From the IMG/VR virus record IMGVR_UViG_3300050130_000093, positions 1-62,938 of that record: 62,938 nucleotides of DNA; one strand, given 5' to 3'. Numbering within the stretch: position 1 is the first letter of the stretch; every line of letters begins with the position of its first letter. The DNA is from a virus (taxonomy: Duplodnaviria > Caudoviricetes). Made by a program: the position numbers and the translations under genes. The notes under the pieces are model-generated. The model worked only from the letters and a program-made list of their open reading frames with translations. It ran no database searches and was not told the origin of the DNA. Shown piece by piece: positions 2,700 to 61,109 of the stretch.

Positions 2700-2886
2700 C
2701 GCGGGCGGAGATTGGCCGCTCACCGAGCACGAGCACACTCTGATCTTGGCTGCGAGCACACAGGTCTGGACGGGCGAGCTTCGCGCTGCCCTTGCGATGG
2801 CGGTGGAGTATCGCGGCTTCAAAGTGAGCCCATACGACTCGCCCGGCGATCTCGCGGACCTCCTTGAGCAGGTGGGGCGGCGATGA
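2689..2886 (+). CDS. hypothetical protein
   Basis: Fits operon packing; stop overlaps the next ATG. Confidence 0.5.
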   Translation: MGSSAGGDWPLTEHEHTLILAASTQVWTGELRAALAMAVEYRGFKVSPYDSPGDLADLLEQVGRR

Positions 2887-3425
2887 CCTACCGGACCATC
2901 GTCGTCGACCCGCCGTGGCGCGTACATCAGCCGCCCGAGTGGAACTACGGCGAGCCTGGCGGCAAGCCAAATCGGCCGGTGCCCTACCCGACGATGACGC
3001 TCGCAGAGATCGCGTGCCTACCCGTCGGCGATATGGCTGCAACCGATTCCCACCTCTACGTGTGGACAATCAACCGCTACATCGAGCAGACCTACAACAT
3101 CGCACGACTGTGGGGATTCAAGCCGTCGACCTTGTTGACGTGGTGCAAGCCACGGAAGGGACTGGGCGTCGGTGGCGCTTACGCGCTTACGACAGAGTTC
3201 ATCCTGTTCAGCCGGCGCGGAAAGGGCGCATTTGAGCGCCGCTGGGACACGTCCTGGTTCGAGTGGCCGCGCGGTGCCCACAGCGCGAAACCCGAGGCAT
3301 TCCTAGACATCGTGGAGCAGGTTTCGCCCGGCCCCTATGTCGAGTTGTTCGCTCGGCGTGCGCGGTTCGGCTGGGACTACTGGGGCGACGAGAGCCTAGG
3401 CACGGCCGAATTGGGGGTCGCATGA
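2883..3425 (+). CDS. MT-A70 family N6-adenine DNA methyltransferase
   Basis: TIVVDPPW catalytic motif; YPTM, LYVWT, WGF, TEFIL, HSAKP, ELFAR. Confidence 0.92.
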   Translation: MTYRTIVVDPPWRVHQPPEWNYGEPGGKPNRPVPYPTMTLAEIACLPVGDMAATDSHLYVWTINRYIEQTYNIARLWGFKPSTLLTWCKPRKGLGVGGAYALTTEFILFSRRGKGAFERRWDTSWFEWPRGAHSAKPEAFLDIVEQVSPGPYVELFARRARFGWDYWGDESLGTAELGVA

Positions 3426-4348: not shown

Positions 4349-4506
4349 GCACCTGCCGACACCGACGCTGCCGCTACCAAAACGGGCTGTACCAAGGCTA
4401 CTGCGGGAAGCACTGGATCATCCGCGAGTTTCCCGGCCTGCGCGCCGGTTTGCGCACCCGCATTGCGCTGTGGATCGCCCCATGGCTCGAACGGTTGGCA
4501 CCATGA
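4345..4506 (+). CDS. hypothetical protein
   Basis: ATGA coupling at both ends. Confidence 0.45.
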   Translation: MSTCRHRRCRYQNGLYQGYCGKHWIIREFPGLRAGLRTRIALWIAPWLERLAP

Positions 4507-4697
4507 TCGACGACACGTTCACGATCACCGTCGAACACGAACTCGCCGCCGGAGGCCTACCACAACGCGCTCACCACCAGGCACACAGCCCCGGCGGACT
4601 CGTCGCGATCATCGCTGCGGTCATCGAACAGCCCGGCTTCCGCAGCCTCACCGTCGATGTCGAAGCCGACGAGCAGGAACTGGCGATCGCCGCGTGA
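4503..4697 (+). CDS. hypothetical protein
   Basis: Coupled overlaps with both neighbours. Confidence 0.5.
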   Translation: MIDDTFTITVEHELAAGGLPQRAHHQAHSPGGLVAIIAAVIEQPGFRSLTVDVEADEQELAIAA

Positions 4698-5638
4698 TGT
4701 TCACCGAAGCCGAGACGGCCACCAAGATTCGACAGCTCGCCGAAGCGAACGGCACCACGCACCCGGTCACTGTTCGTCACGTCGATCCGGCGACGCTTCG
4801 ACCGGCGACGGACACGCAAGCAGGGATCCCTGCGTCAGTGAGCCCAACCAAGCCGCTCTCGGCTGGGACCTTCTCGCCGATTCATACACGGACACCCGAG
4901 CACAAGCAGGCTGTCGCCAACCGCGAGAAGATCGTCACCTACCTCGACAGCCGCCAAGGCGAAGGCGTCCGGCTCGGCGAGATCGTCGAAGCGACCGGCG
5001 TCAACACGCACGCCTCCAAGGCCGTGCTTGCGGACCTCCACGAGAGCGGCCTGATCCGCCGCTACGGTGAACGCGCCGGCACACGCTACAGCCGCCCGCA
5101 CGCCGGCGCTGACCCCGATGTCCGGATCCGCGAACCGACCAGGAGCCGGCCGACCGCAACGATCGAGACCGACGAACGCACGCTCAAGCTCATCGTCGGC
5201 CAGCCTGGCATCCGTCACACCGCCATCATGGACGCCACCGACTGGAACAAGTCCACCGTCAGCCACGCGTGCGAGCGGCTACTCGCCGCCGGGAAGGTCC
5301 AGCGCGTCGAGGGCTGCTACTACCCGGCCGGCTACGAGGTCCCGACGGTCGTGCCCGCGCGCGTGAACCGGCCCAAGGAACGGATCGTTGCTTCGTCGCC
5401 TGTCGGGTCCCCCCAGTGGATGCGCGAACAGCTTGCCGCCGTCGCCCCAAGTCCGCCGACACCCAAGGAAGCGCCGCCATCCCCATCGGGCGTGTTGGAG
5501 ATGTTCGAGCGGCTCATCGTCAGCGAAAGGCGGCTCGCACGCGCGCTCGAGACGCTTCGGTGGGTCTCACTTGCCGCCGCCTTCCCCGACCTTGACGCCG
5601 ACGCGATCTACGACCTCATCGACGACGTGCTCACATGA
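4697..5638 (+). CDS. DNA-binding protein with two winged-helix domains
   Basis: LGEIVEATGV..VLADLHESGLIRRYG and HTAIMDATDWNKSTVSHACERLLAAGKV. Confidence 0.65.
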   Translation: MFTEAETATKIRQLAEANGTTHPVTVRHVDPATLRPATDTQAGIPASVSPTKPLSAGTFSPIHTRTPEHKQAVANREKIVTYLDSRQGEGVRLGEIVEATGVNTHASKAVLADLHESGLIRRYGERAGTRYSRPHAGADPDVRIREPTRSRPTATIETDERTLKLIVGQPGIRHTAIMDATDWNKSTVSHACERLLAAGKVQRVEGCYYPAGYEVPTVVPARVNRPKERIVASSPVGSPQWMREQLAAVAPSPPTPKEAPPSPSGVLEMFERLIVSERRLARALETLRWVSLAAAFPDLDADAIYDLIDDVLT

Positions 5639-27842: not shown

Positions 27843-29252
27843 CTATTGGGTCGTTTCGAGGATCAGCGTCACGGTCAGCCCGTCAGCACTCGACGGAGAC
27901 GACAGCACAATCGCGAACACGTCGCCGTCCGCCACGCTCGGAGGCGTCCCGGCCGACGTATGGGTCACCGAGCTTGTGCAACTCAATGCGCTCATGCTGC
28001 TAACCGCCGATCCGTTCTGGTTTAGCGCGACGGTCACGGTTCCTACCCGGCAGACATACCGGACGCCAATCACCTTTACCGTGACACCCGAATCAACGGA
28101 TGCGTAGAACGGCGGGATGTAGTTCGTGGCACCAGACGCGACCGCGAGCGTGCCGCTGATCGACCACGTGTAGGTGTTCGTGAAGTTTGGGAGGGCGGTT
28201 ACCACCGAAGACGGCAGAGCAGCAGCAACGTCGGAGGAGTTGAGCACGACCGCGCCCGTACGAGTGTTGAAGCTCGAGACGCCCCCGCCGCCACCCCCAC
28301 CGCCTTGGTCGTACCCGCTGACCGTATGCCAAACGCTACCGTCGGACGCCGGCGTCGCAGACATCGGGAACGTCAACGCCAGAGCCGACAAGCCGTCGAT
28401 CGTCTCGATCGGCGTCGCCGCCAGCAACGGCTGGATGCTCACCGCGTTGCCGGTCCCCCCGTCCGCGGAGCACTTGACCGTGAACTGGTAGTTCGCGAAC
28501 TGCGTGGCGTTCGGCAGGTAGACGGTGATCGGGCCAGCGGTCGTGTCGCACATGATCAGCTCGTTCGCCGAGGTGATCTGGTACGGCGAGTTCGCCGCGG
28601 TGATCGTGACCAGCGGGCCCGACGGCGCACCTGACGGCGGTGGCGTCCAGCCGTTCACGGCCTGCCAGAAGTTCGGATACTGCGCGAGCAGATAGACCGC
28701 GACCGCGACCTGCGGGTTGATCACCTGCTCCGGCACGACGTTGATCGTCTGCTGCACGCCGCCGGCGACGATCGTGACGGAGTACGGGTTCGTCGTGCCG
28801 ATGTACTGCACGAACGCCGCGGACGGTGCTGACGGGTTGAGGCCCACGTTGCCGTAGCCGAGGATGCCGACCTTCTCGTCATCGCCCAGCCGTGGAACGG
28901 CTGCGGCAACCGGCGCCGACGGCAGTTGGAGCTCTGCCTTGCGTCCCTGCGGGACGACGGGCACCCCGCCGTGCGCGTGCGGACGCGCCGCCGATACCGC
29001 CCTCGACTCATGGACGACCTCGCGCGCCACGGTCGCAGGCGCCGCGACGGACGCCTTCTTGGCCCGTGCGCGAGTCACGTTCGCTGGCCGCGACGCGGTC
29101 GCGCGGTCGGTCTTGGTCTTGGTTGCCTTCGCCGGCGCCACGCCCCGGGCATGCGGGCGTCTCGCTGACGATGCCGCCGACTCGCGGACAACTTCGACCT
29201 CGCGCGGCAACGCGGGCGCAACGTCCACAGGGATCGGCTTCGGACGCTTCAA
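27843..29252 (-). CDS. fiber-like structural protein with basic N-terminal extension
   Basis: AGGAGG then TTG 29252; VSSFNTRTGAVVLNSSDV fiber motif; DTTAGPITVYLP. Confidence 0.7.
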   Translation of the reverse strand: MKRPKPIPVDVAPALPREVEVVRESAASSARRPHARGVAPAKATKTKTDRATASRPANVTRARAKKASVAAPATVAREVVHESRAVSAARPHAHGGVPVVPQGRKAELQLPSAPVAAAVPRLGDDEKVGILGYGNVGLNPSAPSAAFVQYIGTTNPYSVTIVAGGVQQTINVVPEQVINPQVAVAVYLLAQYPNFWQAVNGWTPPPSGAPSGPLVTITAANSPYQITSANELIMCDTTAGPITVYLPNATQFANYQFTVKCSADGGTGNAVSIQPLLAATPIETIDGLSALALTFPMSATPASDGSVWHTVSGYDQGGGGGGGGVSSFNTRTGAVVLNSSDVAAALPSSVVTALPNFTNTYTWSISGTLAVASGATNYIPPFYASVDSGVTVKVIGVRYVCRVGTVTVALNQNGSAVSSMSALSCTSSVTHTSAGTPPSVADGDVFAIVLSSPSSADGLTVTLILETTQ

Positions 29253-46237: not shown

Positions 46238-47279
46238 TCAGAGGAGCTTGACGATGACGACGATCAGGATCACCACGATGAGGAATCCGACGATGCCGTA
46301 CCCCATGTCAGCCGGCCGGCCGGTTCACGGCGACGACGTAGCCGCCGGCGAGCAGGTCGACGATGAAGAACGTGAACGCGAGCACGAACCAGAACAGTGC
46401 CGGGACGTTCAGGAACTGGGTGGGTACGGCGAGGCAGACGAGCGCGATGATGCATGCCGCGAGCGCCAGCCAGATGAACAGTCTCATTTCGGGCCTTTCG
46501 ATTGGGATGCGGCGTCATGTTTGGCGTGCAACAGGTCGAGCGAAGCCTTCAACGCGTCCAGCTTGTCGGCGTGCTCCGCGTGACGTTGCTCGTGCTCGGC
46601 GAGTTTCGCGTGCAACGGTGCGATCTTCCGGTCGACGAACCGGTGCAGTCGGCGCTCGGTTGGCGGCCAGAGCAGCACTCCGAACGGTGTCACGACCTCG
46701 ACGATGATGATGCTGGCCAGGATGTTCGGCGCGATGTGCGAATTGTCGAACGGGATGAAGTCCGTGTGCAGGTGCGTGTGAAACACCACGATCTCGGCGA
46801 CGATCGCCAGGACGTAGGCGGCCGCAGCCCACTTCTGCCAAGTGGGGACCGGCTTATCTTCCATTAGCGTCTCCGGCCGAGCCGCAGCAGGCCACCCCAA
46901 TACGCCAGCACGATCAGGCCCATGAGTATCCAGCCGGCGGTCATCCGAGACGGGTGATGAGTTCCAGGAGGCCGCCCGCACCAGCAAGAGACCCGGCCAC
47001 AGCCGCACCGGCGGCGAGGATGATCTGCCAGTGCGTCCAACTGCGCGCCTCGCTCTCTTTCAACGTCTTCGCGACCGCGTCCGTGCCGACCTTCGCCTCC
47101 TTCAACTCCTCAACTTCAGTGTTGAGGATGCCAATGCTGCCGTTCTGCCTCACCACCGTGTCGGCGAGATGGTCGATCCGGCCACCAAGCCGATCCTCAA
47201 CGGCCTGCAGCTCGACGGTGTGCAGATGCGCCGCGGCCGTGATGCGTTCCGCCAACTGGGCGTTAGTGATCGGCGCCAT
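46238..47279 (-). other. cluster of five small membrane-protein genes (46238-46306, 46308-46487, 46484-46864, 46864-46944, 46941-47279)
   Basis: Abutting or coupled ORFs, each with hydrophobic helices. Confidence 0.6.
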
Positions 47280-49443
47280 TCAGCTCTCCGGGCTCGTTGT
47301 CACGGACAAGATCCTGCAGATGACGCGCCGACTGGCGCCGATACTCCTCGGCAGCCGCAAGGAACGCCGGATCGTCCGGACGTTTGCGTGTCTCACGCAG
47401 CCTGCGCACTTCGCCTGCGAGCTCGGCGAGAACACTCGCGAGCATGTCGTCTGACTGGCGGATCGCCCTGGCACCCGCCGCGCCCGCAGGATTCGCCTTC
47501 GCCGGGAAACCACCGCGCGTCGGCGGACCCGCCGGCGTCGGCGCAGGGCGCCCGGGAACAGCCGGCTGTGTCGGCTGACCAGTCAACGGCGACCCCGGAC
47601 CCGGCTGGCCGCCCCCGGGCGGAACAGCCCCAGGCAAACCAACGAGCACACCCATCGGATCGTCCTCCTGCGCCGGAACCTTCGACGGATCAAGCTTGGC
47701 CGCCTGACGGTTCGTCGCAATGATCAACGTGCGCCGCCCGGTCCCCTGCTTCGGCTTCTGCGCCGGCTCACCGGTGACCGGGTTCGACACGCCGTCCGGG
47801 TCGTCCTCCATCTCAACATCCTCAAACTCGCCGTCGATCAGCTTCTGCTCCGCGTCGAAGTCGTAGTTCGCGATCCCCATCACCACCGCCGCCCTACTCC
47901 CCGCCGTCCGCTTGCTCAAATACTGGTTGGCCTCCGCGAAGCTCAAGTTCTGCAACGTCTGGGTCGCGTCCTCCGTCGCGATCGGCGGGAACGTGATGTC
48001 GATCGTCGCATCCACAATCGACGCAGAATCCATCACCCGGTCGCCCATGTCACCGAGAACCTGGCCAATGAACGCCTGACGGTCCTGCAACCGTTTCGCC
48101 ACCGGCTCCGTCGCAACCAGCGCATTCGCCGCCGTTCCGCCACGGAAAATCTGGATCACATAGTCGACCGGCACCCCAGGCCCGGCGCACACCATGTTCG
48201 CAAGCTCAATGAACGTCGGATCGACGTTGCTCCCCGACGTCTGGCGTTCCGGCGCGACCGCCGACAGCGAAGACGCACCGGTATGCGCAAACACCGTCCC
48301 CGGCCTCGGCGGCTGACCGTTCGGGAACAGCAGGTTCCGCACCAGCGACACGTCGGCCGCGTTGCCCTCCACGACAAGATCCCACGCCACCCTGGCCTGC
48401 ATGTCCGCCATCGTCACCTTCGACGTCAGGTAGTGCCGCAACCGTTCGATCCAACTCAGCGACGGGTACAGGTCCGACCTGCCACGGCGCTCGCTCGAGC
48501 TGACATTCAGCCGGTAGTGGTCAACCGACTGCGGCAGGATCTGGCGGATCACAAACTTCGTTAGCTGACCGCTCTTCGTCGGCCCGTACGGCGACGGCGC
48601 CATCCCGGCAGGCAGCGACCCTTGCGGCGCGTAAAGCTGGTATGGCGTCTGGTACTGCTGGTGGTACGCGTACACCGTCTCGAAGTCTTCGGGGTCGGTG
48701 AGGATGTCGTAGATCGACGCCGGATCGAGCGAGCGGACCGTCAACTTCGCAGGCTGGTAGGGGAAGTAGCGCAGAAACAGCTCGCCCAGGATGCATGCGT
48801 CCCGGCAAATCTCGTCCAGCCGGCTGTCCATCCGGTTGCGCTTCCAAAACTCGTCCCACGCCTGCTGCGCCTGAACATGCGACTGGCCGTTCGTCTTCTT
48901 CCACGCCACCACCACACCCTTGCCGAGCACGAACTCCTGCTGCAACTGGACGGCCCGCCACGTCAACGGATCGTGGTTGTACGCCTCGAACGCCTTCGCG
49001 CTCATGGCGAAGTAGTCCTGCCAGTACAGCTGTCTCGTGACCGGCCCTGGCAGCAGCGGGATCCACTGCGGATTGCTGCCATACGCGCCGAGCTGGTCGT
49101 AGCCCAACGCGAAACCGTCGCCCCACGACTCACGCAGCCGCTTCGGAAACCGTGCGACACGCCTGTCGAGCGCCTCCCGTGAACGGAAAAACTGGCGTTT
49201 GCTTTCCCTGATTACCATCCGGCCGCCAGACTCCGCGGCCTTCACGAACACCAGATGCGCCTCGATCTGATCGCCGGGGCCCGGCAGCCGGTCCGGACAC
49301 TCACCGGGCCGCAAATCCAGGCTCCAGTCGCCCGGGAACAGCGGCGGCGCATCCACCCTGAACGCCGACGCATGCTGCTCATGCAGCTCACCAAGCGCCC
49401 GTGCCTGCTCCGCGTCGATATGCCCGTTGCCGTTTACGCCCAC
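47263..49443 (-). CDS. portal protein
   Basis: Follows terL; GE.F, RGRSDL motif; Pro-rich C-terminus. Confidence 0.85.
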   Translation of the reverse strand: MGVNGNGHIDAEQARALGELHEQHASAFRVDAPPLFPGDWSLDLRPGECPDRLPGPGDQIEAHLVFVKAAESGGRMVIRESKRQFFRSREALDRRVARFPKRLRESWGDGFALGYDQLGAYGSNPQWIPLLPGPVTRQLYWQDYFAMSAKAFEAYNHDPLTWRAVQLQQEFVLGKGVVVAWKKTNGQSHVQAQQAWDEFWKRNRMDSRLDEICRDACILGELFLRYFPYQPAKLTVRSLDPASIYDILTDPEDFETVYAYHQQYQTPYQLYAPQGSLPAGMAPSPYGPTKSGQLTKFVIRQILPQSVDHYRLNVSSSERRGRSDLYPSLSWIERLRHYLTSKVTMADMQARVAWDLVVEGNAADVSLVRNLLFPNGQPPRPGTVFAHTGASSLSAVAPERQTSGSNVDPTFIELANMVCAGPGVPVDYVIQIFRGGTAANALVATEPVAKRLQDRQAFIGQVLGDMGDRVMDSASIVDATIDITFPPIATEDATQTLQNLSFAEANQYLSKRTAGSRAAVVMGIANYDFDAEQKLIDGEFEDVEMEDDPDGVSNPVTGEPAQKPKQGTGRRTLIIATNRQAAKLDPSKVPAQEDDPMGVLVGLPGAVPPGGGQPGPGSPLTGQPTQPAVPGRPAPTPAGPPTRGGFPAKANPAGAAGARAIRQSDDMLASVLAELAGEVRRLRETRKRPDDPAFLAAAEEYRRQSARHLQDLVRDNEPGELNGADH

Positions 49444-50969
49444 GGAAGCACCACAGGCGCAACCGCAACCGCACCAACGCCACCCGTCGGCGGAAAGATG
49501 TTGATCAAGGCGTACCCAAGGCTGTCGAGGCTGTGATCATTGATCCCGTCCTTCTTGTAGGTGTCCTTCACGACGCCACCAACCGCGTAGCTGTCCCACT
49601 GCGCCTGCTCGAACGCCTGCGCAAGCCGCGGACACTCCGAACAGTTCACCAACAGCCGACGGTTCTCAAGCAGATACTGCATCTGGCCCACCCGGTCAGA
49701 CGGCCCGACGCGCGCGAACTTGCCGCGACGATCCACCGCCACCGGAATACCAACGTCCTCGAGGATCCGCACGTCAGGGATTGTCGTCTGCGGATCGCGC
49801 GCACCCCCCGCAGGATCAACGCCGCTGCGCACCAGCATCGTCGTCAACCCAAGCTCACCGTCGCGGCGCAGGATCTCCGCAGCAAACGTCGGCGTCGGCC
49901 GCTGCTCCAACACCAACTCCGAGAACACCACGACCACACCGCCGGGACGGACCTCCATCCAGTAGCAGACCGCCGTGTTGATCCCGAAGTCGATGCCGCG
50001 CCACACCGGGTCACGCTGCTCCGGATGGACGCCCTCCATCGTCGGCGACCGAATGTAGCCAATGTGATGCGTCGACCGGCTGAAGTAGTCCGCGAACGGC
50101 GAGTCGCCAGCCAGCTGAAACGCTTCGGCCGGCGTGCTCGGATACTCCTGGCGAAACGCCCGATCGTTGCCGAGCTCGCGGCGCTTCGCGTCATGCCACG
50201 CCGCGTCACGCTCCGGATGCGCGTCCCGCGGAAAGAACAACGGCACATACGGCGAATCGTTCGGGCCCTCCACATGGTCCGGCGACAGTTTCCCCTCACA
50301 CGCCTGCCACATCCGGTGGAACGTGTTGCCAAACCCGCGCGCCGTCGAAATCCCGAGCAGCTTGCCGCCCGGACCGATCGTCGGCGCAACCGCCGTCATC
50401 AGCGTCTCAATGTTCAGGATCTTCGAAATCTCCTGCACGATCACGAGCTGCGTCGTAAACCCAGTCCCCGCATCAGACGTCGACGGCAAGCTCATGATCC
50501 GCGACTTCATCCCAGGAAACTCAACGTTGTTCTTCGAGTCAGGCTTTGTCCGGTCCCGCCGCAGCTGCGGCGGCAGGCGGTCGTGCATCACCTTGATCCG
50601 CCGGATCTCCTCCTCAGCCTCCCGCTGGGTGTAGCTGAAGATCAGCACCGTCTGACCCGTATTGAACGTGCACAACCACAACGCATACACGTCCGCCAGC
50701 CAACTCAAACCAAGCTGCCGCGCCTTCAACACCAGCACCCGGTCGTACTTGTCGAACGCCCGCAACGCCTCAACCTGAAACGGCCACAACTGAAACCGGC
50801 GAGGCGGCCCGCCACGATCCGACTCGATCCAGCAGAACCGGCTACAAAACACAGCCGGATCCAACGCCGCCGCCTCCACAACCGCCCGCGGAACCGCACG
50901 ACCCGATTGAACGCCATCCGCCGACACCACGGCAGGCAGCCAGTCCGTCTGCGTTTGCATCGCGCTCAT
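49434..50969 (-). CDS. terL: terminase large subunit
   Basis: L.PFQ, VLKARQLGLSW, ISTA.G, RQEY, GIDFG, DH..D..GY. Confidence 0.93.
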   Translation of the reverse strand: MSAMQTQTDWLPAVVSADGVQSGRAVPRAVVEAAALDPAVFCSRFCWIESDRGGPPRRFQLWPFQVEALRAFDKYDRVLVLKARQLGLSWLADVYALWLCTFNTGQTVLIFSYTQREAEEEIRRIKVMHDRLPPQLRRDRTKPDSKNNVEFPGMKSRIMSLPSTSDAGTGFTTQLVIVQEISKILNIETLMTAVAPTIGPGGKLLGISTARGFGNTFHRMWQACEGKLSPDHVEGPNDSPYVPLFFPRDAHPERDAAWHDAKRRELGNDRAFRQEYPSTPAEAFQLAGDSPFADYFSRSTHHIGYIRSPTMEGVHPEQRDPVWRGIDFGINTAVCYWMEVRPGGVVVVFSELVLEQRPTPTFAAEILRRDGELGLTTMLVRSGVDPAGGARDPQTTIPDVRILEDVGIPVAVDRRGKFARVGPSDRVGQMQYLLENRRLLVNCSECPRLAQAFEQAQWDSYAVGGVVKDTYKKDGINDHSLDSLGYALINIFPPTGGVGAVAVAPVVLPWA

Positions 50970-51011
50970 CGGTCACATCCCTTCGTCGCACCTGCTAGGG
51001 TGCGCTACCTA

Positions 51012-51293
51012 ATGCGACAAGTCAACCTGCGTCTTGACGACGCACTCTACGAACAGATCGAAACCGCCCGAGGCGACGTGCCACGCAACAAGTGGCTCAC
51101 CCGAGCAGCCGAAGCGCAGGTCGCCATCGGATCCCGACTACACAAGGAGCTCAAACGCGATGACGACGGGCTTCTTGCGAAACGCCAGGAGGAGGAGACC
51201 GATGGAACCGAACGAGCGGTTGCTGACGTACATCAACGAAGCGCTAAACAACGGACCGTTCGTCCCCGCGGAGGAAGCCGAGAGGATCATTGA
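51012..51293 (+). CDS. ribbon-helix-helix DNA-binding protein
   Basis: MRQVNLRLDDALYEQIETARGDVPRNKWL. Confidence 0.7.
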   Translation: MRQVNLRLDDALYEQIETARGDVPRNKWLTRAAEAQVAIGSRLHKELKRDDDGLLAKRQEEETDGTERAVADVHQRSAKQRTVRPRGGSREDH

Positions 51294-51723
51294 CCGCTGG
51301 ACTACTGAAGATCCCGCGACCCTCCACGCTTGGTACAGGCAGCAGCGTGTCGCCTTCGTACGGCGAGCCCTGCAAGACGCGCTAGACAAATGCCGGCCGA
51401 CGGTCTGCAGCGGCAGCGCCAAGCGTAGGTTCATAGATGCCGCCGAGACGCCGGGACCTTCCGTACTGGTCCGCTGGCGGTGCAAGGTCGATGACGAAGG
51501 CACCCAGCTCTCGATCGGTGCAATGCACGCCAAAGACCACAACTTCGTGGCGGCGGCTCGCGGCGATCAGGCGCACGCACTGGCGATGGTCGCAGCCTTC
51601 CACCGGGCAGTCGCATCCAGAATCGCCAACAAACGCACCGACCAAGTCTTCGATGCCGAAACACTCTTGGCGCTCTACAAGAGCATCAACAGCAGCGAAC
51701 CGAAGGAACTACAAGCCGCCTGA
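51202..51723 (+). CDS. hypothetical protein co-oriented with the array and Cas7-like gene
   Basis: AGGAGGAGGAG RBS; its stop abuts the array. Confidence 0.75.
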   Translation: MEPNERLLTYINEALNNGPFVPAEEAERIIDRWTTEDPATLHAWYRQQRVAFVRRALQDALDKCRPTVCSGSAKRRFIDAAETPGPSVLVRWRCKVDDEGTQLSIGAMHAKDHNFVAAARGDQAHALAMVAAFHRAVASRIANKRTDQVFDAETLLALYKSINSSEPKELQAA

Positions 51724-51976
51724 CAACGCTACGCCGCACTCGCCATCGCTGCCCTCACGACAACGCCTCCCGCGCCTCGCCACCCCCGGCCTCGCGAAGC
51801 CACCCCGGCCCCCACGACTCCCCTCTCCGCGCCAAGCCAGCACAACCCCTACGACTCCCCTTCCCAACGCACGCCCCGCCCTCTCTTCTCGCCGCACACG
51901 ACCACGCTGCTCGCCGCGCCACAGCTCGACGACCGTACCGGACCAGCGCACCTCGGCCCAGTCCACACGACAACCC
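51720..51976. repeat. 5-nt-periodic array (NN + CNC/NCC), six units delimited by ACGAC-like markers; candidate guide RNA locus
   Basis: 40 of 41 in-phase pentamers end in C; markers at 51720, 51757, 51814, 51851, 51898, 51930, 51967. Confidence 0.85.
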
Positions 51977-51990
51977 GAAAGGACACGACG

Positions 51991-52713
51991 ATGCCCACCA
52001 GCGTCTTCGCCGCATACGAACAACAGCACTACCCCTACCGGTTCGCCGGCACGCTCCACCTCAACTCAATCGCTGGCGGCGTACCACGCGACCCCGCCGT
52101 CCTCGAAGGACACCTGAAGCGCAAGACCGCCGAACCGGATGACCTGATCCGACAGGAGATCGCAAACGTCATGGCCGAACGCGCCCTCCGGGGCGAAGCA
52201 GACGGCGACATTGCCGTCGCTATCGAAGACGCCATCGGAGAGGTTGCCGTCACGAAGGGCCTCGTCGGCTTCCGCACCGACCCGGAACACGGCCTCTGGA
52301 TCCGCAGCGCACAACTCAAAGCCTGTATTCGCGAAGCAGGAAGCATCGCCGCTGCCGCCGGCAAGATCAAGCAGGCCGGCTGGGGACTCAACTCCGCCCA
52401 GCGCGGACTCCTCAAATGGCTCGCCGAACACGTCTTCGTCGTCGACGACCGCCTCTACCTCGGCGTCACCGAACCCACCTACACCGAGCAGTCGTTCATC
52501 CACAAGATGACACCGAAGGGACCGACATCGGCGATCCAATACACCGAAGTCGTCGAAAACGCCAAACTCGACTTCACGGTCGAAACGGACTGGGAGTTCC
52601 CCGAAGCCGACTGGGCCGCGATCTGGCTGACCGCCGAACAGAACGGTCTCGGCGCGTCCCGAAAGATGGGCTACGGCACGTTCACAGTCACGAAATGGGA
52701 ACGTCTTGGCTGA
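51991..52713 (+). CDS. stand-alone Cas7/RAMP-family protein
   Basis: GAAAGGA RBS; LWIRSAQLKACIRE resembles the Cas7/Csm3 IPGSSLKG.IR motif; C-terminal Gly-rich loop GLGASRKMGYGTF. Confidence 0.8.
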   Translation: MPTSVFAAYEQQHYPYRFAGTLHLNSIAGGVPRDPAVLEGHLKRKTAEPDDLIRQEIANVMAERALRGEADGDIAVAIEDAIGEVAVTKGLVGFRTDPEHGLWIRSAQLKACIREAGSIAAAAGKIKQAGWGLNSAQRGLLKWLAEHVFVVDDRLYLGVTEPTYTEQSFIHKMTPKGPTSAIQYTEVVENAKLDFTVETDWEFPEADWAAIWLTAEQNGLGASRKMGYGTFTVTKWERLG

Positions 52714-52823
52714 CTGGCCCGTCGAACAACCCACCGAACCCTGCCGCGACTGCGGAATCAACCCCCGCATGCCAATGTGGCGCACATGCCTGACGTGCTG
52801 GAAGAAGAACAGGAGACAAGCCG

Positions 52824-53219
52824 ATGCGAACACCCCACCAGACCTACCAAGACCTCCGCCACGAACTCCACCAACTCCAACAACGCCGCTGGATCCGCCG
52901 CAACATGATGCAAACCGGCACCCATAACGACGGCACCCCAATCTACGGACCCCGACGCCCCCTCAGCCGCCGCGAACTACGCAAAGTCAAAAAAGCCGTC
53001 ATCGAAGACCTAAAACACCAGGCCCGCGCCACCCAAACCGAATACGCAATCCACCGCCGCAGCAACCCAGCAGCCCCCGAACACCCCCACGACTACTGCT
53101 ACCCCGGCCGACAAAACGCCATCGACCGAGCAAACCACCACAACAACAGCCCCCACTACGAAGGCACCGACTGGGAACCCATCCAACGCGCCCTCCCAGC
53201 CTGGCACCCCGTCAACTAA
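52824..53219 (+). CDS. hypothetical protein
   Basis: AGGAG RBS upstream. Confidence 0.55.
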   Translation: MRTPHQTYQDLRHELHQLQQRRWIRRNMMQTGTHNDGTPIYGPRRPLSRRELRKVKKAVIEDLKHQARATQTEYAIHRRSNPAAPEHPHDYCYPGRQNAIDRANHHNNSPHYEGTDWEPIQRALPAWHPVN

Positions 53220-53398
53220 CGAACACCCTTTTTTTTCTTCCCGAAAAAAACCCGGGAGAAGTCTGAGGGCCCGTGCCGCGGTTTTGCCGTCCGTGTGGGT
53301 TTGCCGGGAAGTAGCGCCGTCGGCCCTCCGCCCCGCGCCATCCCCGACTGTCCGAGCTGTGCAGCTGCCCCGCCGCGCGATCGTTCTTGGCAGTCGGC

Positions 53399-53710
53399 TT
53401 AGCTTCGACACCACGAGCACTTGCAGCCAGGCTGATGATGCTGCGCCGGCCGCGGAACCGCGCTCGCTGGTCTCACCGCTCCGGACGCACGGATCTCCTC
53501 GAGACTGGCCGGAGTCCTGGTAGCCGGACGGATAGCGGTCGATCGAGCCGGCGCAGGCTGTGAGCTCGTGACGGGCGCCGAGTGACCTAGCGCCCGCTCC
53601 ACCGCGGCAGTGATCCACGCGTTCCGAGTCAACTCGCCTCGAGCTGCGTCGACGCGCTGCAGCAGCACTAGATCGAGCCTGAACGTCACCTGAAGCTTGC
53701 TGGTCGCCAT
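53399..53710 (-). CDS. ribbon-helix-helix protein, paralog of 51012..51293
   Basis: QVTFRLD..L.RVDAARGELTRNAWI. Confidence 0.7.
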   Translation of the reverse strand: MATSKLQVTFRLDLVLLQRVDAARGELTRNAWITAAVERALGHSAPVTSSQPAPARSTAIRPATRTPASLEEIRASGAVRPASAVPRPAQHHQPGCKCSWCRS

Positions 53711-53718
53711 CACCCGCA

Positions 53719-53773
53719 AGTGATATCACCCGCGCCTAACAAAGTGGTATCACCACGACCGAGTGATATCACC
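53719..53773. promoter_or_regulatory. three palindromic operator-like boxes AGTG[AG]TATCACC
   Basis: Copies at 53719, 53743 and 53762, directly upstream of the RHH gene. Confidence 0.7.
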
Positions 53774-53785
53774 GCGTATATACGT

Positions 53786-54349
53786 CTACGCCGCTTCGCT
53801 GCCCTCCACAACCTCATCCGACCCCGCGGCCAGCAGCTTCGCCGCCATCTCAATCCTCAGCGCCGGCGGTATCTTCGCCGGCTCAACACCGCCAGTGACC
53901 TCCAGCCGATGATCGACAGCACCGAACATCTCAACCTGACGCTTGTTGCTCCAGCGATCCGGCGCACGATTCGTCAACACGAACTTGAGCGCATCAACAT
54001 CACCACGATCGATCGCCTGCTTATACAACGACGACTCGACCGCATCAACCAACGCACACTCAGCGTCAAAGCACGCCTGGCGAAACGCCCGATCACGCGC
54101 CTTCCACCGATAGAACGTCGTGGTCGTGATCCCTGCCGCATTGCACGCCGCGACGATCGAACACCGCTTCGACATCAGCAGCTCCACAGCCCGCGGCATC
54201 CACGACCGCCCAAACGCCACGACCTCACCATCGACCTCATAACCACCATAGTCACCCGCGGGCGAACCAACCACAAGCGACCCTGATCGCCCGTCATCGC
54301 CTTGTTCGTGGCCGACTGGTGTTGTGGTCGTTGTGTCTGTGGTGGCCAT
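53786..54349 (-). CDS. terS: terminase small subunit (start uncertain)
   Basis: ACNAAGI...TFYRW..D..F, VESSLY..A..GD..A.KF.L.NR..W. Confidence 0.8.
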   Translation of the reverse strand: MATTDTTTTTPVGHEQGDDGRSGSLVVGSPAGDYGGYEVDGEVVAFGRSWMPRAVELLMSKRCSIVAACNAAGITTTTFYRWKARDRAFRQACFDAECALVDAVESSLYKQAIDRGDVDALKFVLTNRAPDRWSNKRQVEMFGAVDHRLEVTGGVEPAKIPPALRIEMAAKLLAAGSDEVVEGSEAA

Positions 54350-54539
54350 CGTTTGTGGTCTCCGTGGCTGGGTTTGGTTCTGGGTGGTTCGGTGACGGTC
54401 GGTCTGGAACGACGAACGCCGCCCCTGCGGACGGCGTCGGATGTCGTTTGGCCTTGTGCTGCGGGCGATTCTGAAGAAAGGTCTAGCCGCTGCGTCAGAG
54501 GGTAGCACTTCGGAAAACGGAACGCCAGACGTGCCGCTG

Positions 54540-56179: not shown

Positions 56180-56239
56180 ATCTCCACGCCTGAGCCGTTC
56201 CGCACCGTTCTCACGGCGTCGCGCACGGACCGAAGGGCA

Positions 56240-56761: not shown

Positions 56762-58027
56762 TCAGACAACCGCGCATCGCTTCGCCGCCTTTCTCGCCGC
56801 CTCCATCATCTCCGCCGGACTGCGCCCGACGAACTCGCCCCAACCATCATCCGGCAGACCGCAGAACACGGCCAAGCGGTCCGCCTGCTCCGCGTCCAAC
56901 ATCGAGAACTCCTCGGTCACGTCAACACGCCCGGGACGCAGTAGAGCCGTGTCGAGCGCGTCACGGTCGTTCGTGGTGAGCACCGTCACCAGGCCGTGCG
57001 GCGTCCAGACGCCATCGAGCGCGTTCAGCATCGCCGCAAGCGACGCCTTCGGTGAGTCATCGTCGCGGTCCACCGCGGCGTGGTACACGTCGGCGTCCTC
57101 GATCAACAGGATGCTGCGCGAACGGATCTGCCCCACGAGATTCATCAGGTCGGCGTCGCGCTCGAGATCGCCGAGCGGCAGGTAGTGCACCGGCAGGTCG
57201 AAGTGGTTCGCGAGCGCCCGGGCGACACTCGTCTTGCCGGTGCCTGGCGGTCCGTGGAACAGGTAGCCGCGATGCCACGGCTGCGACAACCTGGCGTAGT
57301 CAGCCTCGGACGCGATGAAGCCACCAAGGTCGTCAACGAGCCGCTCAAGCTGCCCAGCCCTCAGCACGACACTGGCGAGCGCGCGCGGCGGCAGATCATC
57401 CCGGCGCGACCAGTCACCACCCCACCGTGACGGCATCAGCAACGACGGCTGCTTCTTGGTCGCGTAGACCTGAACAGCCAGCTGTTCCAGCATCGAAACC
57501 ACGGCGTCACGGCCAGCCGGCGTCTTGGCCGTGAACTTGATCGACTCCATGAGGCGCCGCCAGTTCGGCGGTAGGTGCTCGCGGCCGCCCGGTAAGTCCT
57601 CGCGCTCAACCTGGACGTCGATCTTGTGGCCGTCGAGCGAAACCGTCTGCGTGCGACTGCCGTCGTAGCGCAAACGCACTCGTCTCGCCGGCTCCTCCGG
57701 CTCATCCACATCCCCGACCGCCAGCAGCCGGCCGAACCCGCTGTTCTCGGATGTCGTGTCGGCGATCATCGCCTTGCGTGTCTCGGCCGGGATCCGCTCA
57801 AGCACCCACTCGTGCAGTGCCGGGTAGAGCTCATCGCTGCCAGCGACGGCGATCGTGAAGTCCTCCTTCTGACGCTTTTCCGCGAGCCACTTCCACGCCG
57901 GTGCCCCGAGCTGCACCGCCGCCACAACCGCGAGCGCTCGCTGGCCGTGCTTACCACCGTAGCGCTCAACGATTGGCCACAGCGACCCAGGCGCAGCCGC
58001 CGCCTTCAACTCACCGGCCGTGTTCAC
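56762..58027 (-). CDS. AAA+ ATPase, BCS1-like
   Basis: WHRGYLFHGPPGTGKTS, LLIEDAD, LNALDGV, TTN, LLRPGRVD. Confidence 0.9.
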   Translation of the reverse strand: MNTAGELKAAAAPGSLWPIVERYGGKHGQRALAVVAAVQLGAPAWKWLAEKRQKEDFTIAVAGSDELYPALHEWVLERIPAETRKAMIADTTSENSGFGRLLAVGDVDEPEEPARRVRLRYDGSRTQTVSLDGHKIDVQVEREDLPGGREHLPPNWRRLMESIKFTAKTPAGRDAVVSMLEQLAVQVYATKKQPSLLMPSRWGGDWSRRDDLPPRALASVVLRAGQLERLVDDLGGFIASEADYARLSQPWHRGYLFHGPPGTGKTSVARALANHFDLPVHYLPLGDLERDADLMNLVGQIRSRSILLIEDADVYHAAVDRDDDSPKASLAAMLNALDGVWTPHGLVTVLTTNDRDALDTALLRPGRVDVTEEFSMLDAEQADRLAVFCGLPDDGWGEFVGRSPAEMMEAARKAAKRCAVV

Positions 58028-59010: not shown

Positions 59011-60172
59011 TCATGTCTCGTCGAGCACCTCCCGTACGGTGATCCACGACCCAGCCGACTCACCGCACTCAGGACAGAACGTCGCGGTCCACGGCTGCTC
59101 CCAGCCCTCTTGGTAGTTCTCCTGCACGTTGGGACGGTTGCCGACGTAGCCGCAGTCGTAGCAGGACACGACCTCAAAAACTCGTGGTTCGCGCGGTTGC
59201 GCCTGCTCAGTCATCTGCCAGGAACACCCGGAAGCGGCTGGACGTTCGCTTTGCCCCATCATCAGGCGTCGCTCGCGTCCTCCCAATTGCGCTGCCTGTG
59301 AAGGTCGCACAGGCCGTTGGCGCCCTTTTTGTGCGAGCGCGGGCGTTCGCACCAACACGACGCGCCACGGTCCCGATTCGGACGCTGGGCGTTCGACCGC
59401 TGGTTGTAGGCGCGCGTAGCGTCGGGATGATCGCGCTTGTACTGGGCGCCGGTGCCGCTCATAGCGCCTCCAACCATGCGCGCGCCTCGGCTTCGTTCTC
59501 GCGGGACACCCACGCGGCCAGCGTGATCGGGTCTTGTGGGTGATTCCACGCGCGGTTCGGCGACACCATCCACGGCTCAATGCCGGGCCTAGGGACGTGC
59601 GTGTCGTTGATCGTCCAGGTGCGCTCCTCTGAGAGCATCCCGTCGAAGTTGAGCACCACCCGCAGCAGCGGTCGTCTTATAGGTCCAGCGCTATGCCCCA
59701 CGTCAGTCATGGTCATCGCTCCATCCCATGACGTTCAGGAGCTTGCGATCAACGCGGGACTCGTCGCCGTTGTCGAGGGTCACGATCCACCAACCGGAGA
59801 ACGGCGGGTACTCGCTCGTCACGACGCCAGCCTGTCCGGCATTCGGATGATCGCCGTAGATCAGCACGCGCAGACCGATCAAATCGGCGTCTCCGTCTCT
59901 CACGCTAAGCCCCATCAGCAGTCCTCCCAGGCGGTCACGGTGCGACGCTGGACGCGGACTCGCGCATTAGGATCGTGCGAGAGGTCTGGGAGCACGCGAG
60001 CGTTTCCTTCTGGGGTCGGGTAGCCGATCAGGCGCGAGCCGCCCGTGAACTCCACGAGACGACGGAACTCGATGCCACCGTCCTGCCAAATCTCGCGCTC
60101 CCAAGCGATGCGCTCAGCCTCGCGCAGCGGCTCAAGTGCTCTGTCGTTACGCCCCATGTTCGGCTGTCTCAT
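59011..60172 (-). other. run of small overlapping hypothetical genes (59011-, 59262-, 59459-59716, 59703-59915, 59915-60172)
   Basis: Coupled short ORFs, one with CYDC/CPEC Zn ribbon. Confidence 0.5.
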
Positions 60173-60570
60173 GCGGCTTTCCTTTCAGTGTCGAGCTGTT
60201 CGTCGGTTGGTGATGGGCCGAGCTTTGCGGCCCGGACAGGACCCCTCAACTCATTCGCACGTTCCCGCGCCTCACGACGCCTATCGAACCGCTCGACGAC
60301 CGTACCGGACCAGCGCACCACAACCCAGTCGCCATCGACACGCGCCACCGTGAACGGCAACCTCGGTCGAAGACGCCGCCTGAGCCGTTCCGCAGCGTTC
60401 TGCGAGCCTCGCAGCGCACCTGGATGGTTGAGTAGCCACTGACGTTTCCGACAAGCCTGGTCGCAGTACAGACGGCTCGCAGCGGCATCGGCGGGTAGCG
60501 GCTTGCGACAGCGAACGTAGCCGCAGGTCCGCGTGGTGGTTCCGCGATGCAGCAGATCAAGCAGTCCCAT
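60169..60570 (-). CDS. Zn-finger hypothetical protein containing the array-matching sequence
   Basis: C...C..L......YC...CR; ATGA coupling to the next gene. Confidence 0.65.
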   Translation of the reverse strand: MGLLDLLHRGTTTRTCGYVRCRKPLPADAAASRLYCDQACRKRQWLLNHPGALRGSQNAAERLRRRLRPRLPFTVARVDGDWVVVRWSGTVVERFDRRREARERANELRGPVRAAKLGPSPTDEQLDTERKAA

Positions 60571-60767
60571 GGCACCGCGCACACTACACCAGCCGAACGA
60601 CAGCAACGAAGGAAGAAACGGTCGGTTGGGGGTGGTTAGGGTGTGGTTCGCGCGCGCGTGCGATGTCGCAAACGTGGGTGTGGCTGGACGGGGCTCGCGC
60701 CCGTGGGCTGGCTTTCGACATGTGCTCTCACAGCCGACTGAACGGCGGAGCATCGATGGCCCCGTCG

Positions 60768-61109
60768 CTATGTCGTGGTGCGCCGCGCTTTCCCGGTTAG
60801 GGCTTTGCGGGTGCTGCGGTTCCACGGCCGCACACACATCGGCGTGCCGGTCGCGGCAAGTTGTCGTGCTTGCGCTAGGTCGGAGCGGGCTTTCTCGCGC
60901 TCGGCGCGCAGTGTGACGCGAACGAGCGATGCGATGCCGCTGGCGTTAGCGCATCCGGGTCCGTAGCCGTTCTTGCGAGCCCTGGCTGACTTGAGATGCC
61001 CGTCGCAGCGGACGCAACGGTGGAACTCCCACTCGTCGGCGGCCCACCAGATGACATAGTTGCCAACCCACTTGGGTGCGGAGTTGCGGTCCGACACCGC
61101 TCTATGCAA
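60768..61109 (-). CDS. Zn-finger protein
   Basis: CVRC...L.......GYGPGCA. Confidence 0.55.
   Translation of the reverse strand: MHRAVSDRNSAPKWVGNYVIWWAADEWEFHRCVRCDGHLKSARARKNGYGPGCANASGIASLVRVTLRAEREKARSDLAQARQLAATGTPMCVRPWNRSTRKALTGKARRTTT

Follow-up and report, generated by a model that had tools for sequence, protein, structure and literature searches.

What kind of system is carried by a small block of genes lodged between the two terminase genes of an uncultured phage is the question raised by the IMG/VR virus record IMGVR_UViG_3300050130_000093 (62,938 bp, ~65% G+C), the whole of which was analysed and is referred to below as the window. An earlier sequence-only reading had described here a co-oriented cassette made of an RHH gene, a 173-amino-acid (aa) gene, a ~250-nt periodic non-coding array and a 240-aa protein with RAMP motifs; the open reading frames (ORFs) and motifs were found as described. 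The cassette, at 51007-53175, is very probably an RNA-guided system of the VIPR family in a high-GC phage of Actinomycetota. Its main parts are as follows.

51007..53175, strand not assigned: accessory cassette of 2,169 bp, with five ORFs and the array, most of orf131 included
51202..51723, plus strand: 173-aa accessory gene (candidate vap), a conserved neighbour, family A5
51722..51986, plus strand: punctuated period-5 array of six units with YAC-GAC punctuation
51991..52713, plus strand: vipr, 240-aa minimal RAMP (Cas7-like) protein, assigned by profile homology

According to the accessible text of two 2026 preprints (bioRxiv 10.64898/2026.04.26.720920; 10.64898/2026.04.26.720927), VIPR is a CRISPR-related system that consists of a minimal RAMP protein (Vipr) and guide RNAs built of GGY/NN units, which read double-stranded DNA with a 1-nt skip. 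The window has, as a VIPR locus does, a vipr gene with an accessory gene, no cas genes and no CRISPR array, in a phage record. Models of Cas1, Cas5, Cas6, Cas7 and Cas10 (PADLOC, E <= 1e-5) had no match among the 129 ORFs of at least 140 aa, and no repeat-spacer (CRISPR) array was found in the window with a set of programs that included Tandem Repeats Finder, in agreement with the earlier statement that cas1, cas5, cas6, a large subunit and a repeat-spacer array were missing. The sole cas-labelled PADLOC row was a sub-domain Csa3-like match at 4463-5635. The observations behind the assignment are homology to Vipr, the anatomy of the array and its conservation, synteny, and the presence and absence of the whole cassette in near-identical phages.

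Homology of the 240-aa protein to Vipr

The 240-aa protein contains the motifs LWIRSAQLKACIRE at residues 102-115 and GLGASRKMGYG at residues 219-229. As a single sequence, it gave nothing above threshold against Pfam, PHROGs and PDB sequences. When 1.84 billion representatives were searched exhaustively, 523 cluster representatives were retrieved as relatives at E <= 1e-3, and 111 of these were aligned to give profile A1; a second alignment, A4, was built of 46 relatives of the 195-aa SUSP1 Vipr. Comparison of A1 with A4 by hhalign gave a probability of 94.6% and an E value of 7.1e-8 over 128 columns, which covered residues 83-234 of the window protein and residues 47-188 of SUSP1 Vipr and ran collinearly through helix-1 (GLYIEGRQvKA vs GPYIPGxNIxA) and the G-loop. 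With the single SUSP1 Vipr sequence in place of A4, the values were 65% and 5.9e-5. A likeness to VIPR, which the sequence-only reading had offered, is thus borne out, the system now being in print. The four best matches of A1 among PDB sequences were Csm4 G-loops (E 0.06-0.32), and the members of A1 scanned singly gave sub-threshold Pfam matches to Cas_Cas6_C (5/111), RAMPs (3/111) and CRISPR_Cas6 (1/111). These results support the 240-aa protein as a predicted minimal RAMP of the Vipr family. The model of the protein in the ESM Atlas (predicted template-modelling score 0.68) had unnamed viral proteins as its sole neighbours.

Careful examination of the G-loop in A1 revealed that G219, G221 and G229 are nearly invariant and R224 is invariant. 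R179 of SUSP1 Vipr, which stacks on Y3 in the cryo-EM structure according to the accessible text of the report (10.64898/2026.04.26.720927), aligns with R224. The residues contacting G1 and G2 in SUSP1, D177, W178 and R138, align with A222, S223 and T185, respectively, and are not conserved; this loss lowers the case for the same anchor chemistry, not that for family membership.

Anatomy of the period-5 array

The 173-aa and 240-aa ORFs are separated by a non-coding gap of 267 nt (51724-51990). Self-identity at lag 5 over 51722-51990 was 0.477, compared with 0.350 +/- 0.026 in 5000 dinucleotide-preserving shuffles (z 4.94), none of which (0/5000) reached the observed value, so that the ~250-nt periodic array proposed earlier stands. 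When each shuffle was allowed its best lag between 2 and 12, 0/2000 reached the lag-5 value of the array. Nowhere in the 62.9-kb window was the lag-5 excess higher than in a 120-nt stretch of the array, 51865-51984 (0.193; standard deviation 0.041). The array is too degenerate to be called by Tandem Repeats Finder. A coding origin of the gap (Pro-rich ORF 51437-52117) was rejected, since the period of the signal is 5 and not 3.

The entire gap cannot be read in one phase, since the phase is reset at each recurrence of a YAC-GAC punctuation. The GAC triplets begin at 51722, 51759, 51816, 51853, 51900, 51928/51931 and 51969, giving units of 37, 57, 37, 47, 28(+3) and 38 nt (starts at 51722, 51759, 51816, 51853, 51900 and 51931, respectively). 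With the pentamer phase fixed solely by this recurring GAC, 42 pentamers were parsed. Position 5 was C in 39 of the 42 (regional C content 53%; binomial P 3e-8), position 3 was C or G in 40 and position 4 was C in 23 (55%), while positions 1 and 2 held mixed bases; the plus-strand format is N N S c C. Units comprise 4-10 pentamers, the longest (51759-51815) having 9-10 guide pentamers. The first unit begins within the stop codon of the 173-aa gene, and the final handle, CACGACAACCC (51966-51976), is directly followed by GAAAGGA (51977-51983), the ribosome-binding site of the 240-aa gene. The handle is ~10 nt long without a hairpin, and gave no Rfam family and no hammerhead match; Rfam on the cassette region returned only a chance match to a long non-coding RNA (E 0.13).

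It was also noticed that part of the array occurs a second time in the window:

60288..60330, plus strand: 43-nt partial duplicate of the last array unit (91% identity to 51921-51963)

This copy is part of a ~100-nt stretch (60241-60346) where a period-5 C signal is present, though weaker, together with two handle-like motifs, CACGAC / CTCGACGAC. The stretch is 8.4 kb from the cassette and overlaps a minus-strand ORF (60169-60837) whose only homologue is itself; it may be a recombination scar, coding sequence or a solo guide of the sort reported in relatives of SUSP1. Contig ends at 51924 and 51963 in the peat run X2 were considered as strain variants of the array and rejected, as they correspond to the paralogous stretch 60288-60330. 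A 25-nt element (CGCCTGAGCCGTTCCGCA.CGTTCT) is present twice, at 56187-56222 and 60377-60412, each time just past a gene end or the second period-5 stretch, and may be a shared regulatory or terminator element. A lag-5 peak at 56.1 kb was rejected as an array; it has only this 25-nt element in common with the site at 60.3 kb.

Conservation of the array and the accessory gene in related loci

The set of related loci comprised 28 viral loci, the Microcystis phage Mae-JY09 and six copies in prophages or metagenome-assembled genomes. The viral loci were retrieved with a six-sequence alignment as query, and L003, a weak partial match to the single-protein query, was dropped. The six copies, five of them in Actinomycetota, were from Nanopelagicales, Jatrophihabitantaceae, Streptomyces, Streptacidiphilus, an Actinomycetes metagenome-assembled genome and one Caldilineaceae; cultured carriers are Streptomyces sp. 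NPDC088794 and Streptacidiphilus carbonis NBRC 100919. After removal of the duplicates L014, L021 and L033, 33 loci remained, with L034, probably the same as L008, still counted.

All 33 loci had, no more than 2.5 kb away, an array of period 5 whose fixed letter is C as read on the gene's strand (13,653 nt in all), the outcome of a check of homologue flanks proposed in the sequence-only reading. The opposite, G-type orientation accounted for 2,167 nt within 2.5 kb, over half of it in L012 and L016, and at greater distances array signal amounted to 1,145 nt in 71.6 kb. The fixed letter was C on the gene's strand, co-oriented with the operon, for 86% of array bases. The triplet, which had been called degenerate and C-rich on the gene's strand, is so throughout the protein family. 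When 204 handle occurrences from 24 loci were stacked (regular expression CGACNN[CG]C, the positions of which are fixed by construction), the logo showed C at 0.8-0.9 at each fifth base for seven to eight steps, two weaker C positions (~0.55 and ~0.5) before the fixed C, and in every pentamer a further two positions at background, with information near 0.03 bit. Unit length was 5n+3 nt in 124 of the 215 parsed units, the handle inserting three bases (GAC). The window and its closest relatives, L004 and L005 (59-63% identity), have YAC-GAC, lengths of 5n+2 and a laxer unit, N-N-S-n-C.

In 21 of 29 loci, a count that includes the duplicates L014 and L021, tblastn detected a homologue of the 173-aa gene upstream of vipr and co-oriented with it. 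The loci without it were L001, L011, L018, L012, L016, L027, L028 and L031; L011 and L018 have almost no upstream DNA, and in L016 a gene of similar size follows vipr instead. The 16-sequence alignment of the family (A5) has the conserved motif AFHRAVAKKVG...VFTEEQY..MYRS. No match of the family, and none above threshold of the protein alone, was found in Pfam, PHROGs or PDB sequences, and the protein showed no similarity to SUSP1 vap1. From its conserved position, the 173-aa gene is a candidate vap-like accessory partner of vipr. A 353-aa database ORF (P0006) has ~100 N-terminal residues resembling the 173-aa protein (hhalign E 1e-5 to A5) joined to a full Vipr, and could represent either a genuine fusion or a locus that has collapsed and lacks an array. 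In L016 (3560-3880 and 5250-5570) and L012, arrays of opposite orientations flank the vipr-accessory pair, G-type upstream and C-type downstream, with the accessory gene after vipr. In the Caldilineaceae prophage (L038, 3685-3730), the accessory gene and vipr abut, and a strong hairpin past the vipr stop is followed by a C-type array.

The composition of the units bears on the alternative that a RAMP-like RNA-binding protein uses or processes the C-rich leader in some other way, e.g. for translation control of its own operon or for RNA targeting. In favour of it, the array is part of the operon and immediately precedes the vipr ribosome-binding site, the residues that recognise G in SUSP1 are not conserved, the accessory gene is unrelated to vap1, and no natural DNA target was shown. 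A purely regulatory leader, however, would not hold two positions of near-zero information in every five bases over 204 units from 24 loci, nor would it grow to 30 units, as the array of L028 has done. Hypervariable NN beside a fixed anchor is, moreover, the published signature of guides, for which the accessible text of the 2026 preprints allows a "related consensus". We consider such a role of the leader very unlikely and retain the assignment to VIPR.

Guide strand and anchor

Two strands could supply the guides, and on balance we lean towards the operon's own strand, read as (S-c-C)(NN). In more than 20 loci the array takes up all of the space separating the vap stop codon from the vipr ribosome-binding site, so that an antisense promoter could not be accommodated. 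Immediately 5' of NN, the sense strand has C in 90% and T in 4% (94% pyrimidine). High-GC relatives of the canonical family have xGC-NN on the gene's strand, and co-orientation of the arrays with the genes matches the proven sense guides of SUSP1. With guides of this strand, the strongly fixed pyrimidine 5' of NN would replace the Y of GGY, and both G pockets would have been remodelled.

It is possible, albeit doubtful, that the same VIPR system takes its guides from the strand opposite to vipr, as (G-g-S)(NN)n with a short GGGTAGTCGG-like 3' tail. The array would then be the published "NNNGG / NNNNG, staggered array" format viewed from the gene's strand, an equation about which we are just as hesitant. 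Several findings favour the opposite strand at the expense of sense guides. In the accessible text of the preprints all repeat formulas are written with G, and each vrRNA has its constant element, the tail, 3' of the guide, where the handle would fall on the opposite strand. The family handle, when reverse-complemented (GGGTAGTCGG), is similar to the beginning of the SUSP1 tail (GGGTAGTTAGTC), the 7-mer GGGTAGT being common to both. L012 and L016, which also have long arrays of opposite orientation, show that either orientation relative to vipr is possible, and the minus-strand packaging operon, from the small to the large terminase gene, would read through the cassette antisense. Against this stand the array-filled gap in more than 20 loci and the co-orientation of 86% of array bases with the operon. 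On the opposite strand, moreover, the expected pyrimidine Y3 would be G in 45%, A in 19%, C in 24% and T in 12% (64% purine), yet the arginine aligned with the Y3-contacting one is invariant, and the residues that contact G in SUSP1 (D177, W178 and R138) have been replaced. A scan of 50800-53500 found no promoter-like site on either strand, with terminator-like sites at the level of shuffled sequence, a result compatible with guides from either strand.

A further reading, to which we give somewhat less than an even chance, is that this clade of actinophage Vipr proteins, with its 523 cluster representatives, has re-coded the guide anchor. Its guides would be C-rich operon-strand RNA in which only the NN-adjacent pyrimidine, together with R224, was kept; the guanine pockets would have been replaced (D177, W178 and R138 by A, S and T/E, respectively), and guides would be cut by a 3-nt GAC phase shift rather than by a structured tail. 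If this is true, the fixed triplet of VIPR is evolvable and a natural, orthogonal, G-free guide format exists. Sense guides would also offer an orthogonal anchor for engineering VIPR guides, as well as a naturally occurring test of which contacts between protein and RNA are indispensable.

Presence and absence of the cassette and its surroundings

The cassette genes have a terminase gene on either side and run antiparallel to both. The remaining cassette ORFs and the neighbouring packaging genes are as follows.

47263..49443, minus strand: portal gene
49434..50969, minus strand: large terminase gene (terL)
51012..51293, plus strand: RHH-like gene, 93 aa, weak match of residues 1-33 to PHROG 4738 'transcriptional repressor' (E 0.004)
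52706..52927, plus strand: orf73, CxxC...CxxC, inside the cassette, weak PHROG HNH match (E 0.083)
52824..53219, plus strand: orf131, mostly within the cassette
53786..54508, minus strand: small terminase gene (terS)

Metagenome runs containing the stretch were from peat and permafrost. In DNA contigs, positions 51006 and 53176 were joined directly, at depth 151 in the permafrost run X3 and depth 2 in the peat run X2. Since contigs of other DNA runs make this junction, the whole cassette is an accessory indel, and a near-identical phage exists with and without the 2,169 bp. The indel takes out five ORFs and the array in one block, leaving the last 44 nt of orf131. The cassette sequence itself was covered by other contigs of X2 and X3; it is fully present in X2, and in X3 its pieces had a depth of ~19 compared with 151 for the cassette-less form. 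Both forms coexist, because low-depth X3 contigs span parts of the vipr gene. The carrier is an uncultured, high-GC phage of Actinomycetota from peat and permafrost.

The frame of the RHH-like ORF ends at the stop codon 51291-51293, its tail overlapping the start of the 173-aa gene. L004 has an RHH-like ORF at the equivalent position, and tblastn detected no homologue of the window ORF in the other related loci. orf73, which is not conserved across the related loci, overlaps orf131 in a different frame, and one of the two may be spurious. Between another small RHH-like ORF (53399-53719) and the small terminase gene, within 53708-53773, a 23-nt direct repeat (CA.CAC...GTGATATCACC) occurs in two copies 43 nt apart, which may form a pair of operators. 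Two other products of the phage are a type II DNA methyltransferase-like protein (2883-3422; PADLOC MTase_II, E 1e-39) and an AAA-type ATPase (56762-58027; PHROG 7485, E 6e-44).

Predicted targets and the state of the window array

Filament assembly, DNA silencing and the skip rule are attributed to the window system by homology with SUSP1. By this homology, the 240-aa Vipr would polymerise along each guide unit with one protomer per five bases, burying the fixed triplet and presenting the two variable bases, a mode of coating that the sequence-only reading had also proposed. These would read double-stranded DNA two at a time with one base skipped and would thereby silence a competing phage, satellite or prophage, and the conserved 173-aa neighbour would act as the vap-like partner. 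The double-stranded DNA site predicted by the skip rule is identical for either RNA strand.

The unit 51759-51815 (18 fixed bases) was the only window unit long enough for a specific search. It had one exact match in IMG/VR, with none for the backwards control and ~1 expected by chance on a rough estimate of collection size. The match lies inside a minus-strand ORF with the skipped bases at third codon positions, and the matched gene belongs to no family; the other five window units showed no convergence on the matched contig. A guide of L004 (20 bases) had one match, with the skip at codon position 1, and a guide of L030 (24 bases) had none. In a local search of 100 guides against ~330 kb, skips of 0, 1 and 2 did no better than shuffled guides, and a skip of 3 matched only the arrays themselves.

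Several of our findings weigh against the assignment to VIPR. On the protein side, the match to Vipr is limited to residues 83-234, leaving the N-terminal contacts H17 and K33 unaligned; the RRM core and thumb are putative; and hmmsearch of A1 against PDB sequences fails to reach the SUSP1 Vipr chain (36pp). On the array side, the window array is among the shortest in the family (267 nt vs 240-1360 nt in relatives), its units are short (4-10 pentamers vs the 9-16 stated in the accessible text of the preprints) and have no structured 3' tail, and the last unit follows the rule poorly, with C at position 5 in three of five pentamers. As to function, no target above chance was found in IMG/VR or in the local search for the guides of the window, L004 and L030, and in the RNA run X23 contigs lay solely at 52650-52800 and 53352-53492, with none on the array and no strand information, which speaks neither for nor against expression of the array.

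The shortness of the array and of its units, and the last unit that breaks the rule, are also what would be expected if the window array were a worn or idle remnant, in which the protein is of the VIPR family, the units no longer guide and the cassette is leaving the population. The 55% C at position 4, the greater depth of the cassette-less form in X3 and the chance-level single match of the one searchable unit point the same way. On the other hand, all three genes are intact, position 5 keeps its C in 39 of the 42 pentamers and the cassette is fully present in X2, and the same relaxed N-N-S-n-C units and 5n+2 lengths in L004 and L005 indicate a format of this sub-clade rather than decay. We regard a remnant as improbable, and an intact VIPR-family cassette remains our preferred reading.

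Comparison with known systems

Among Class 1 CRISPR systems, Cas7/Csm3 and the Csm4 G-loop share with the window protein a glycine-rich loop (GlGAxRSqGfG) and, by homology, probably one subunit per fixed guide step. In contrast to them, the window has neither a repeat-spacer array nor cas genes as partners, the step is 5 nt vs 6 nt, and all Pfam RAMP-clan matches are below threshold.

The closest likeness is to the type II VIPR system of SUSP1 (Vipr, vap1 and vrRNAs), which we located in KT454805.2 with genes at 28474-29061 and 28031-28471 and flanking GGT-NN arrays on the genes' strand. Both systems have a lone minimal RAMP, related at the profile level as given above, in a two-gene core with arrays of five-base units that include two variable bases; both are phage-borne, without cas genes, and have arrays co-oriented with the genes. 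Each module is also lost as a block in close relatives, by a 1,114-bp deletion in SUSP1 relatives according to the accessible text of the report (10.64898/2026.10.15.759431) and as the 2,169-bp indel here. The two differ in that the protein is of 240 aa here and 195 aa there, the gene's strand has S-c-C as its fixed triplet (G-g-S when the other strand is read) in place of the canonical GGY, and D177, W178 and R138 are replaced. Here units of 28-57 nt are split by a 3-nt GAC phase shift, whereas SUSP1 has ~100-nt RNAs with a pseudoknot tail; and here the array is located between the accessory gene and vipr, the accessory protein being unrelated to vap1.

The accessible text of the 2026 preprints describes seven types of VIPR with six accessory gene families, alternative repeats (NNNGG, YNNNG, NNNNG), staggered and ribozyme-separated arrays, and vrRNAs of 9-16 repeats followed by an invariable structured 3' tail. 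Compared with the text descriptions of the alternative-repeat and staggered types, the window array likewise has a degenerate anchor with one dominant fixed base, and its units are likewise consecutive without long tails, the end of one marking the start of the next. The fixed base differs, being C on the gene's strand. VIPR-like arrays found with a genomic language model, with the non-canonical triplets GAC, CAC, WGT and TGH (bioRxiv 10.64898/2026.10.21.760802), are also of period 5 and beside Vipr-like folds with triplets other than GGY; three of these four triplets end in a pyrimidine next to NN (TGH ends in H), as S-c-C does on the sense strand. The accessible text of that report has no S-C-C / C-C-C among its named examples, and it describes ~10 repeats and no GAC punctuation.

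The cassette is thus a further example of a kind already in the 2026 preprints, unusual in its anchor, C not G on the gene's strand, and in its array format. It documents a populous Vipr clade whose arrays are C-anchored on the gene's strand, punctuated by GAC and set between a conserved accessory gene and vipr. The clean 2.2-kb presence or absence between terS and terL fits the view, expressed in the accessible text of the preprints, that VIPR modules are gained and lost fast in conflicts among mobile elements.

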